The position numbers and the translations under genes were made by a program. From NCBI RefSeq assembly GCF_056746865.1, contig NZ_CM163382.1: DNA of 64,000 nt. One strand, written 5' to 3'. The notes beneath the pieces were generated by a model that saw only the letters and a list, made by a program, of their open reading frames with translations, ran no database searches and was not told where the DNA came from. This document shows, piece by piece, positions 1,675 through 4,417 of the stretch. Each line of letters begins with the position of its first letter. Within the stretch, counting starts at the first letter, position 1.

Positions 1675-1733
1675 ATGAAAACATTACCCGACACGCATGT
1701 ACGGGAGGTATCGTGCTGCCCGTCTCCAGTCAC
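1675..1733 (+). pseudogene. cbtA/yeeV-family toxin gene, 5' fragment ([20 protein letters not shown]) interrupted by the IS21-family insertion
   Basis: ATG at 1675 a short distance after the antitoxin stop; the first ~20 codons match the CbtA-family N-terminus, then the reading frame runs into the IS terminus at 1734. Confidence 0.7.
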
Positions 1734-1832
1734 TGCGTATTCCGCTCTATTCGATCACGGATTGGCATCGAAGTCCGATCAGCGATTCGCATCCATTCGA
1801 TCAACCGGGAACTTAACTTTTTCTACCGCTTT

Positions 1833-2588
1833 TTAACGCGTTTTTTCGCTGCTTTCCACTACCGGGGGATTTTTCCTCAGTGACTCTCCCTGAAGGACCA
1901 CCCGGTGTGAGTTATGTACCAGTCTGTCCAGGATGGCATCTGCTGTTGTTGGGTTCTCCATCAGACCATGCCATTTATCTACCGGGAACTGGCTTACCAC
2001 TATCGTGCTGCTTTGTCCGTAACGATCCTCTATGAGCTCCAGAAGGTCATTACACTGGGCGTTACTTAACTGTTCCAGCCCCAGATCGTCCAGGATTAGA
2101 ACCTGTATTTTTTGCAACTGTTTCAGATATTTCAGCCAGCTGCCATCAACACGTCCCTGAGCCAGTTGTTCCAGTAATCGCCCGGTTCTACAGTACCGGA
2201 CGCTGTGTTTCTGTCGACATGCCTGTTCGCCCAGCGCATTGGCTATCCAGCTCTTGCCACATCCTGTCGGACCGGTTATCAGCAGGTTTTTCCTGTGGGT
2301 TATGTAGTGGCCGTTCAGCAGTTCTCTCATCTGTTCAGCCCGCAGACCTCTTGAGGCCGGATAGCGCAGCCCTTCCGGTGTTGCCTGGTATTTCAGGCCG
2401 GCATTTTTTCTCAACCGTGCCACACGGCTGTTTTCCCTGCTCAGAAGCTCGTCATCAACCAGCAGCGTCAGCCTTTCCTCGAACGACAGTTCGTCGTAGG
2501 TCTGAGGCGTTTCCCGCTGCCGTATCAGGCTCCCGGCCATCGCCGGGAGTTTCAGTTGGGTCAGTTTGTTTAACAGGTTATCACTCAT
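1833..2588 (-). CDS. istB: IS21-family transposition helper ATPase IstB
   Basis: About 251 aa from ATG at 2588 (MSDNLLNKL..); Walker A motif GPTGCGKS and a DnaC/IstB-like AAA+ core; immediately downstream of istA. Confidence 0.85.
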   Translation of the reverse strand: MSDNLLNKLTQLKLPAMAGSLIRQRETPQTYDELSFEERLTLLVDDELLSRENSRVARLRKNAGLKYQATPEGLRYPASRGLRAEQMRELLNGHYITHRKNLLITGPTGCGKSWIANALGEQACRQKHSVRYCRTGRLLEQLAQGRVDGSWLKYLKQLQKIQVLILDDLGLEQLSNAQCNDLLELIEDRYGQSSTIVVSQFPVDKWHGLMENPTTADAILDRLVHNSHRVVLQGESLRKNPPVVESSEKTR

Positions 2589-2604
2589 ACTGTTGTTCCT
2601 TCTG

Positions 2605-4140
2605 TCAGTGGTAGTAGCCCGGACCACGCAGGTTTTCATGCTCTGAAGCATATGCCGGATGTTGTTCGCCCTGGCGGGATAATGGAAGCTCCAGGTTCTC
2701 CCGATGGTGACGCAGCAGATTGTCGATAAAGCGTCTGTCAGGGGCGTTATAGTGCAGGGCAACGTAACAGGCCTTTTCCAGCCGTTCCGGGCCGTATTTT
2801 TTCTGAAGTGCCAGCAGCCCCAGAACTGCACGATAAGCCAGTTCCGGATGGGGTTTTGCCTTCAGCATGGATTCAACCACCCGGCCTGTGGACGGGCCCG
2901 TACGTTTTCCCTGCTCGATCAGGCGTTCCGGTGTCCATGTCCCGTGCTGCCGGTGGCGCTCTGGCATGTGAAGCGGATTGGTTGTGTGTTTATATTCATG
3001 TGTGCTGCGCGGATGTTGCGCCACACACTGCCCCTTGTGCCAGAGCTGTACCACCGACTGCCCCGCCTTCAGTGACAGACGCTGACCGACCAGTTCGTGT
3101 GGAACGGAGTACCAGTGACGGGCATATTCAACGTGGTAGTCAGGGCCAACCTTCACAGCTTTGTATTCCGTGTATTCATAAGGTGCCAGAGGCAGCGGAG
3201 AGAGTGCTGGCGCATCCAGTATGCGGAAGCGTTCTGCACGGGTTTGATTGCCGTACCCCTTCATTGGCCGGTTATTCATGTCTGTCAGTAACTCCCTAAG
3301 GCGCGCATTCAGCGCCCTGAGCGTGTGGAAGGTTTCATTACGGATGCGGGCAAGAAGCCATCGTTCGACGATGAGGACGCCGTTTTCTGCTTTTGGTTTA
3401 TCTTTAGGTTTGCGTGGTCGGGCCGGGATGATAACCGTGCCATAGTGCTCAGCCAGTGCCTGATAACTGTCGTTGATGACAGGCTCATATCGATCGGCCT
3501 TTTTCACTGCGCTTCTGAGGTTATCGGGGATGAGCAGCTTCGGTACGCCGCCCAGGAAGGTCAGGCAACGGCTGTGGGCATTTAACCATGACATCATGTC
3601 CTGACCTTCGCACGCTTCAACGTAGGTATAGTTGGACGCCCCCATTACGGCCACGAAGATTGCCACGCGGCGTATCTCACCGGTGTCCGGATTAATAACA
3701 GGAACCGTAGGACCACAGAAGTCGATAAAAAGCTTTTCGCCGGCACGATGCTCCTGGCGCATGGAGAGACGTCGCGTTTTTTTCCACTCCCGGTAGCAAC
3801 GGCAGAAGTGCGAGTATCCCATCGCTTTGTTACCCGCCTGTGCCTTGTATTCCATCCACAACAGTTGCCGCGTCACACCTGGTTTTCTCATTTCCGTATC
3901 GAGGTACAACATGTCAGGCATTACAAGCTCTGATGCAAAGGTGTCTTTGGGCGGAAAAATGAGTTTCTCCAGCGTGTCATGGGATATATCAGCAGGTAAT
4001 GGCCATGACAGAGAAGAGGCTTTGAAGCGGGCAAGAACCTCAAAAACGGTTGAGGCGCTGATGTGTAACGTCAGTCCGATACAACGGTTAGTCAGCTTCT
4101 TGTCGAACTTGAGCTGAAGAATCTTAAAACAGGTTTCCAT
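2605..4140 (-). CDS. istA: IS21-family transposase IstA (HTH + DDE)
   Basis: 512-aa product from ATG at 4140 (METCFKILQ..) with AGGAG 5 nt upstream; N-terminal HTH-like region and central integrase/DDE-like region; followed 16 nt later by istB. Confidence 0.8.
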   Translation of the reverse strand: METCFKILQLKFDKKLTNRCIGLTLHISASTVFEVLARFKASSLSWPLPADISHDTLEKLIFPPKDTFASELVMPDMLYLDTEMRKPGVTRQLLWMEYKAQAGNKAMGYSHFCRCYREWKKTRRLSMRQEHRAGEKLFIDFCGPTVPVINPDTGEIRRVAIFVAVMGASNYTYVEACEGQDMMSWLNAHSRCLTFLGGVPKLLIPDNLRSAVKKADRYEPVINDSYQALAEHYGTVIIPARPRKPKDKPKAENGVLIVERWLLARIRNETFHTLRALNARLRELLTDMNNRPMKGYGNQTRAERFRILDAPALSPLPLAPYEYTEYKAVKVGPDYHVEYARHWYSVPHELVGQRLSLKAGQSVVQLWHKGQCVAQHPRSTHEYKHTTNPLHMPERHRQHGTWTPERLIEQGKRTGPSTGRVVESMLKAKPHPELAYRAVLGLLALQKKYGPERLEKACYVALHYNAPDRRFIDNLLRHHRENLELPLSRQGEQHPAYASEHENLRGPGYYH

Positions 4141-4372
4141 AGTGCTCCTGGATTTTCTCTTTCTGGACATTGACGTCTCCACTGGTTTAAACACGGCAAT
4201 GGAGACTGTGGTGAAAAGAGTTAATTCCCGGAGTGACTGGCAGGATGCCAATCAATGATCGGAAGCATGCCAAATCGTGATCGATTGTGATGCCAAACTG
4301 TGATCGGAGATGGATGCCAAATCATGATCGATTCGAATGCCAAACTGCGATCGATTCAGATGCCATTTTGCA

Positions 4373-4417
4373 GTCACCATCTGGCAGACACTGCTCACCC
4401 GGTTACTGGACCAGCAT
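4373..4417 (+). pseudogene. cbtA-family toxin gene, short continuation after the IS (..[13 protein letters not shown]), then unrelated sequence
   Basis: Removing the IS and one GTCAC copy restores ..[18 protein letters not shown] in frame; downstream the sequence no longer encodes a CbtA-like protein (deleted or decayed). Confidence 0.6.

Follow-up and report, generated by a model that had tools for sequence, protein, structure and literature searches.

An intact, probably active copy of ISSso4 with asymmetric multi-repeat ends in a cbtA pseudogene remnant

The DNA analysed here, a stretch of 64,000 nucleotides referred to throughout as the window, carries an insertion with an istA/istB gene pair. 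The initial annotation took it for an IS21-family element, longer than IS21/IS100 and perhaps for that reason a less common family member, that had entered a toxin gene at about codon 20, and the locus raises the question of what the element is, whether it is likely to be mobile and what its arrival did to the gene. We consider it very likely that it is an intact copy of ISSso4, probably still active, which transposed fairly recently into a 33-codon cbtA remnant and generated a 5-bp target duplication. Coordinates of all features are collected in Table 1.

Table 1. Features of the ISSso4 copy and its insertion site (positions in the window)
Feature	Position	Strand	Basis
Intact antitoxin gene of the cbeA/yeeU family, preceding the remnant (context)	1217..1585	+	Pfam CbeA_antitoxin E=8e-53; PGAP in empty-site genomes
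cbtA toxin pseudogene remnant from codon 1 to the second base of codon 20	1675..1733	+	Restored translation, Pfam, PGAP
Left copy of the 5-bp target-site duplication GTCAC	1729..1733	.	Single GTCAC in the empty site
Complete ISSso4 (IS21 family), 2639 bp	1734..4372	-	Genes read on the minus strand
istB-distal (canonical right) end, three units R1-R3	1734..1803	+	Phasing; gapped alignment of the two ends
Inner inverted-repeat arm CCGGGAACTTAACTTTTTCTACC, immediately internal to the last unit	1805..1827	+	Inverted-repeat pairs I1, I11
istB, AAA+ helper ATPase, 251 aa plus stop	1833..2588	-	NCBIfam, Pfam, structure match, PGAP
istA, DDE transposase, 511 aa plus stop	2605..4140	-	NCBIfam, Pfam, structure match, PGAP
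Partner inner inverted-repeat arm (CCGGGAATTAACTCTTTTCACC on the minus strand)	4210..4231	-	Inverted-repeat pairs I1, I11
istA-proximal (canonical left) end, six tandem 22-25-bp units L1-L6	4234..4372	-	Tip-anchored phasing
89-aa ORF, non-coding chimera of flank and IS end	4252..4521	-	No Pfam match; flank part site-specific
Right copy of the 5-bp target-site duplication GTCAC	4373..4377	.	Single GTCAC in the empty site
Remaining part of the 99-nt cbtA pseudogene through codon 33, where CbtA homology stops	4378..4417	+	Restored translation, Pfam, PGAP

The family assignment was examined with both proteins. IstA reached 285.8 bits with the transpos_IS21 model of NCBIfam (NF033546; cut-off 160), contained the Pfam domains rve and Mu-transpos_C_2, and aligned to IS5376 IstA (PDB 8b4h, 8q4d) with an E-value of 3e-14; D140, D206 and E252, which fall at catalytic positions of this alignment, are its candidate catalytic residues. 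IstB scored 257.8 bits against IS21_help_AAA (NF038214; cut-off 200), matched Pfam IstB_IS21 (E=1e-60) and IS5376 IstB (PDB 8q3w; E=3.7e-24), and contained a Walker A motif, GPTGCGKS, at residues 106-113 and a Walker B motif, LILDD, from residue 164. Membership in the IS21 family, as originally proposed, is supported at the sequence level by scores of both proteins above curated NCBIfam cut-offs, by Pfam, by the IS5376 structures, and by the DDE and Walker motifs. The length and Walker A motif first given for IstB were correct, while IstA was found to be one residue shorter than the 512 amino acids reported; the same 1536-nt istA gene was called by PGAP in identical copies. The istB gene starts directly downstream, 16 nt past the istA stop. 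In a simple consensus scan, no sigma-70-like promoter that satisfied consensus criteria was found in the istA-proximal end or upstream of istA, where the best candidate was a weak, 8-of-12 match, and none was found at IS21-style junctions modelled by abutting the two ends with 2-4 bp spacers.

In ISfinder practice, an element counts as an isoform of a reference element if the two share at least 95% protein identity or at least 90% DNA identity. Full-length copies 100% identical to the present element were carried by E. coli chromosomes and plasmids (n=25 among the matches listed), and the equally long pCT copy differed from it at 7 of 2639 bases (99.7% identity). The pCT copy was published under the name ISSso4 (PMC6361801), and the IstB product in the 100% identical copies is named 'IS21-like element ISSso4 family helper ATPase IstB' by PGAP. 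Since so few bases separate the two copies, the element is, judged by this published annotation and the PGAP product name, very probably ISSso4; length, tips and istA/istB genes are the same, and nothing substantive differs. ISSso4 also appears in the IS list of S. sonnei 53G (PMC7373316). Its known locations are chromosomes of S. sonnei and E. coli as well as plasmids, IncI among them. Among 5426 complete E. coli genomes, 225 contained near-full-length copies and 1775 had a match of some kind. A search for further copies or fragments within the 64-kb window, which the initial annotation had suggested for the genome, returned only the self-match. We conclude that ISSso4 is a catalogued element, widespread in E. 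coli/Shigella, and that the intact copy described here is an ordinary finding.

That we are dealing instead with a novel, rare and uncatalogued long IS21-family element is very improbable. Such a reading could draw on the size of the element and its 511-aa IstA, since the IstA proteins of IS21 and IS100 are shorter (390 and 340 aa, as calculated from istA genes of 1173 and 1023 nt, respectively), and on the fact that PGAP labels IstA in identical copies only as 'IS21 family transposase'. Against it stand the ISSso4 names of the IstB product and of the pCT copy, the number of genomes with near-full-length copies, and the fact that relatives of similar size are common. The greater length relative to IS21 and IS100 was thus noted correctly at the outset, but the suggested rarity did not hold.

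Four of these relatives, ISEc12, an element of a Klebsiella IncC plasmid (L017), a Gemmobacter element (L021), and ISBmu3, have an IstA of 511-516 aa, a length of ca. 2.58-2.64 kb, and TGCG tips. The IstA of ISEc12 is 46.9% identical to that of ISSso4 over the full length; ISEc12 differs in having GAGATC-type units and an 8-bp duplication. The prototype IS21 and IS100 share the two-gene layout and the protein families with ISSso4, but their IstB is only ca. 28% identical to that of ISSso4, their tips are of the TGTCA type, and their ends are shorter, with fewer recognisable repeats. The Geobacillus element IS5376, for which IstA and IstB have been solved, shares with ISSso4 a DDE IstA and an AAA+ IstB, the terminal CA, direct repeats at a spacing of ca. 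23 bp in each end, and a 5-bp duplication (PMC10122671). The IstA of ISSso4 is longer than that of IS5376 by ca. 100 aa, mostly a C-terminal extension past residue 373 without a match in the solved chain.

The boundaries of the element and the GTCAC duplication were confirmed as first described. The tips, TGCGTA…TTTGCA, were common to the present copy and 14 other copies compared, and are of the IS21-type TG…CA form. When the flanks were joined with a single GTCAC, the resulting 757-bp sequence was 100% identical in 20 of 20 E. coli genomes among the matches listed, and at least 80% of it was covered in 420 genomes. Comparison with this empty site shows the GTCAC repeat to be a genuine target-site duplication. 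A 6-bp duplication, AGTCAC, was considered and rejected: the right tip is fixed as …GCA by the 14 other copies, and the target has a single A before GTCAC. The occupied site was found in none of the 5426 complete E. coli genomes. Together with the perfectly matching empty site, this speaks for a recent and simple insertion, which might also be used to mark the lineage of the source strain.

The insertion is a simple one that splits codon 20 of the cbtA frame between its second and third bases, in agreement with the position first reported. The target, however, was not a toxin gene in working order. In empty-site genomes cbtA is already a 33-codon (99-nt) pseudogene, annotated by PGAP as partial and missing its C-terminus, and the remnant aligns with no more than the first 34 of the 112 positions in the Pfam CbtA_toxin profile. 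Inactivation of a live toxin by the IS was rejected on these grounds. Because the toxin gene was dead before the insertion, the latter probably had no phenotypic effect, and its significance is small: another copy of a catalogued IS has been placed in already non-functional DNA.

Target-site duplications of IS21-family elements are typically 4-8 bp long. Out of 13 other independent ISSso4 sites examined, 12 had direct duplications of 4-7 bp, and at eight of the 13 the length was 6 bp. The 5-bp duplication of the present copy is thus not the usual one for ISSso4, although one other copy (L014) also has 5 bp, and IS5376 duplicates 5 bp of its target (PMC10122671). At a further copy (L010) the flanks matched over only 3 bp, and therefore some copies are not simple insertions. 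The departure from the 6-bp mode and the behaviour of L010 could be taken to mean that the element is a decayed, immobile IS21-family relic, whose flanks match by chance or through recombination between copies. This is most unlikely, and is largely refuted by the recovery of a sequence identical to the empty site upon removal of the element and one GTCAC; the second 5-bp case, the intactness of both reading frames, and the existence of copies with 100% identical DNA at numerous unrelated positions in chromosomes and plasmids also argue against it. Identical copies at many sites suggest that the present copy of ISSso4 is probably active.

To describe the ends, the whole window was scanned with the pattern CGATCANNRWTTGGCAT, allowing up to two mismatches, and the result was compared with 100 shuffles. 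Seven matches were observed in 64 kb, all within the two element ends (0.82 expected; none of the 100 shuffles reached seven). The five minus-strand matches fell within 4245-4353 and the two plus-strand matches within 1752-1792, and the two ends could be aligned with gaps. The ends are therefore asymmetric, multi-repeat and inverted, as had been proposed. The earlier count of about five and about two repeats, while valid for matches to CGATCANNRWTTGGCAT, changes when repeats are phased from the tips: with a unit period of 22-25 bp, six units are found in the istA-proximal end and three in the istB-distal end. Units of the istA-proximal end have the form nnn-TTTGGCAT-N5-7-CGATCA; L1 begins at the tip, and the second half-site of L6 is CAGTCA. 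The first half-site of R1 is degenerate.

In IS5376, direct repeats within each terminal inverted repeat are ca. 23 bp apart, and two repeats are required (PMC10122671); the unit period of ISSso4 agrees with this spacing and with the two-repeat requirement. The number of units differs, with two per end in IS5376 (L1/L2 and R1/R2) versus six and three in ISSso4. Units phased at 23 bp were also seen in ISEc12, the Klebsiella element, and the Gemmobacter element, where the istA-proximal and the other end have four versus two, five versus three, and five versus four units, respectively. ISBmu3 was left out of these counts: it is a single copy that adjoins an IS110 element, and the orientation of its left-end repeats is confusing. 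The unit sequences of the Klebsiella (TTTCGG…TCCGGCCA) and Gemmobacter (TTTCGCG…CGCGGGCAG) elements are unlike those of ISSso4. Because three related elements show the same asymmetry, the difference between ends is, as far as these sequences indicate, probably a clade trait of long-IstA elements. The tip-phased count of six versus three, together with the counts in these relatives, provides a tidy description of end architecture in this clade, and could guide work on what additional repeats contribute, given that the solved IS5376 complex needs two.

The 89-aa ORF was rightly called an artefact, though terminal repeats account for it only in part: its first 49 codons are site-specific flank DNA, and the last 40 run through the end repeats. 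It had no Pfam match, no gene was annotated at its position by PGAP in other copies, and in most other copies checked the same frame was stopped within the first 20 flanking codons. The ORF is an artefact, and should not be reported by gene callers. That one frame is open through the tandem units might suggest that they are coding sequence of this ORF, or an array unrelated to the IS, rather than transposase sites, but there is very little chance of this, given the make-up of the ORF and its lack of a family match, the location of the units inside the mobile unit, with which they move in every copy, the inverted orientation of the motif at the other end, and the same 23-bp phasing from the tip in relatives with different motifs.

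A mechanism for ISSso4 can be drawn by analogy with the IS21 family. IstA, a DDE protein with N-terminal HTH DNA-binding domains, would bind the ca. 23-bp bipartite units at both ends; an IstA tetramer would then pair two tip-proximal units per end and cleave at the terminal 3' CA. IstB, using ATP, would assemble on and bend target DNA, pass it to IstA, and activate strand transfer, and staggered joining would yield the short duplication. Units L3-L6, placed between the tip and the istA start, would most likely be accessory IstA sites that mark this end as different and/or damp istA transcription.

Of the nine units of ISSso4 presumed to bind IstA, eight contain an invariant GATC, the Dam methylation site. 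Transposition of IS10, IS50, and IS903 is coupled to hemimethylation after replication. It is conceivable, though rather unlikely, that ISSso4 transposition in E. coli is similarly tied to post-replication hemimethylation, and that the four extra units form an operator for IstA autorepression. An open-access literature search, which brought up no title or abstract on IS21 transposition, gave no sign that Dam coupling or an istA autorepression operator had been reported in the IS21 family before. GATC as a general adaptation to Dam was not supported. The site also occurs within the unit of ISBmu3, whose host, Burkholderia, to our knowledge lacks Dam, while only two of eight units of the Klebsiella relative contain it. 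Because of this distribution, the GATC of ISSso4 is, on sequence comparison, probably just a recognition half-site.

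The element interrupting the cbtA frame encodes two proteins that place it in the IS21 family, as the initial annotation had proposed. IstA scored 285.8 bits against NCBIfam transpos_IS21 (cut-off 160) and IstB scored 257.8 bits against IS21_help_AAA (cut-off 200); Pfam returned IstB_IS21 (E=1e-60), as well as rve and Mu-transpos_C_2, and the two proteins matched the solved IstA and IstB of IS5376, a Geobacillus element of the same family. IstA residues D140, D206, and E252 align with catalytic core positions of the solved IS5376 protein. The first description of IstB, including its Walker A motif GPTGCGKS (residues 106-113; Walker B is LILDD), was correct, but IstA, which had been given as 512 aa, is one residue shorter, and PGAP calls the same istA and istB genes in identical copies elsewhere. 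The istA frame is open upstream of the annotated start as far as a TTG at 4251 (4140-4251), and a second in-frame ATG at 4170, with GGAG before it, would lengthen IstA by 10 codons. In IS21, two IstA forms are made from neighbouring in-frame starts. Since the IstA proteins of relatives are 511-516 aa long, the start at 4140 is favoured.

Coordinates of the element, its ends, and the surrounding locus (window positions)
Feature	Position	Strand	Details
Orphan antitoxin locus	1109-1585, 4378-4417		intact cbeA/yeeU-family gene beside 33-codon cbtA stump
GTCAC direct duplication	1729-1733 and 4373-4377		directly outside both tips
ISSso4 element	1734-4372	genes on minus	2639 bp; TGCGTA start, TTTGCA end
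istB-distal (right) end	1734 to 1803		three units (R1-R3, from the tip); R1 first half-site degenerate
Inner inverted repeat	1805-1827 and 4210-4231		CCGGGAA(C)TTAACT(C/T)TTT…ACC; just inside last unit, both ends
istB	2588..1833	minus	251 aa; start 16 nt past istA stop
istA	4140..2605	minus	511 aa; AGGAG 4 nt upstream of ATG
istA-proximal (canonical left) end	4372 to 4234		six units (L1-L6, from the tip); sixth with CAGTCA second half-site
89-aa ORF	4252-4521	minus	49 flank codons to IS tip, then 40 codons through units, stop
ISEc12 site of other strains	4645-4652		8-bp duplication AGGATAAC; equivalents in locus L002, from another genome, 2202-2209 and 4790-4797

The IstB product name assigned by PGAP is 'IS21-like element ISSso4 family helper ATPase', and the copy on plasmid pCT, which is also 2639 bp long and differs from the window copy at 7 positions, was listed as ISSso4 by Zhang et al. 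(PMC6361801). ISSso4 is among the insertion sequences identified in S. sonnei 53G (PMC7373316), and is also on record for other plasmids. The identification with ISSso4, made indirectly through the pCT publication and the PGAP label, is well supported. A megablast survey of 5426 complete E. coli genomes revealed a near-full copy in 225 and some match in 1775 of them, a single genome having matches at as many as 34 places; full-length, 100 % identical copies were found on 25 chromosomes and plasmids among the matches listed. The suggestion that this catalogued element might be a less common family member is therefore not upheld.

With up to two mismatches allowed, the end-repeat motif CGATCANNRWTTGGCAT had seven matches in the 64-kb window, five of them between 4245 and 4353 and the other two, in inverted orientation, between 1752 and 1792 (0.82 expected; none of 100 shuffles reached seven). 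The about five and about two copies noticed at first are thus real and specific to the ends. When phased from the tips, as IS5376 repeats are defined, the unit reads nnn-TTTGGCAT-N5-7-CGATCA and is 22-25 bp long. The two ends match at only 8 of their 20 outermost positions, but once a few gaps are allowed a good alignment of the first 70 nt runs through the units; the lack of such an alignment, which had been named as grounds for refuting the initial reading, is therefore not observed. The inner inverted repeat may serve as a binding site for a host factor, or it may be one more unit that has degenerated. A short conserved segment is present at the equivalent position in the Klebsiella and Gemmobacter relatives.

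Relatives were found by tblastn with IstB, and their ends were then read. TGCG tips and 23-bp phasing were observed in ISSso4, a Klebsiella IncC-plasmid element (IstB 61 % identical), a Gemmobacter element, and ISEc12 (IstA 46.9 % identical). The numbers of units at the istA-proximal and the other end are, respectively, six and three in ISSso4 (window copy, 2639 bp), five and three in the Klebsiella element (2594 bp), five and four in the Gemmobacter element (2596 bp), and four and two in ISEc12 (about 2.58 kb). Unit sequence varies between the four elements, as co-evolution with the DNA-binding domains of IstA would predict. Judging by these four elements, a higher unit count on the istA-proximal side seems to be characteristic of the long-IstA clade, and by this comparison the asymmetry of ISSso4 is not unusual. 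We conclude that the insertion is of an already known element, with an end architecture typical of its clade.

In the case of IS5376, an IstA tetramer pairs the two ends, and IstA requires two complete repeats per end and the terminal CA, with 5-bp duplications (PMC10122671); IstB is described as the dedicated AAA+ activator (PMC11208146). By homology, ISSso4 would follow an IS5376-like route via L1/L2 and R1/R2. L3-L6 occupy the stretch from the tip side to the region upstream of istA, and would most likely provide accessory binding that makes the ends non-equivalent, istA autoregulation, or both. No σ70-like promoter was found by a consensus scan of the istA-proximal end or of a modelled end-to-end junction.

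GATC is invariant in eight of the nine ISSso4 units. It is also part of the units in ISEc12 and ISBmu3, whereas just two of the Klebsiella relative's eight units contain it, as do a few units of the Gemmobacter element; the comparison suggests that GATC is simply a recognition half-site. More speculatively, GATC in the units might make ISSso4 sensitive to Dam, and L3-L6 might play a regulatory part. The end repeats (~210 bp) hold 8 of the element's 12 GATC (Dam) sites, one per unit (1753-1802, 4257-4352).

The IS-internal 40 codons of the 89-aa ORF are identical in 11 other copies, while the flank part is unrelated in these copies, with a stop within 20 codons in most. The ORF has no Pfam match and was never annotated among the copies whose annotation was examined. 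We therefore agree with the initial annotation that it is an artefact.

The flanks, joined with one GTCAC, form a 757-bp sequence that is 100 % identical in 20 E. coli genomes among the matches listed and at least 80 % covered in 420 genomes, while a search of 5426 complete E. coli genomes found no copy of the element at this position. The intact, identical empty site and the absence of occupied sites in this set point to a simple transposition that was fairly recent and duplicated 5 bp of the target; GTCAC, single in the empty site and noted at first as a direct duplication, is a true target duplication. Fourteen other copies, 100 % or 99.7 % identical and representing 13 independent sites, were surveyed for duplication length, which was 6 bp at eight sites, 4 bp at two, and 7, 5, and 3 bp at one each. 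Five base pairs is thus a minority length for ISSso4, yet not unique.

The insertion splits codon 20 of the cbtA frame between its second and third bases, so its placement at about codon 20 was accurate, but the toxin gene said to be interrupted was a pseudogene before the insertion. Of the 112 positions in the Pfam CbtA_toxin profile, the restored frame matches 1-34 alone, and in genomes with an empty site PGAP calls the remnant a 99-nt partial pseudogene without the C-terminus, adjoining an intact YeeU/CbeA-family antitoxin gene (PGAP in these genomes; Pfam). Inactivation of a toxin by the IS is therefore ruled out. The orphan-antitoxin arrangement is present in ~420 of the 5426 E. coli genomes. 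An antirestriction protein, a JAB/RadC-like protein, and a DUF987 protein are encoded upstream of the locus, and mtnK and mtnA lie downstream. ISEc12, also of the IS21 family, lies ~270 bp downstream of the insertion site in five or more other E. coli strains; LS45 is one of these, and in the LS45 copy examined the ISEc12 istB is frameshifted. Strain H47 carries ISEc23 (IS66 family) within the same stretch. The dead DNA from the cbtA remnant to mtnK appears to collect insertion sequences.

Two ISSso4 copies, one annotated on the LH10-b-1 chromosome (locus L015) and one on the 46-kb plasmid pLH09-a-E (locus L016), do not differ in their flanks, and both are bordered by a 4-bp duplication, GCTT; this suggests that the 46-kb replicon can be integrated or free.
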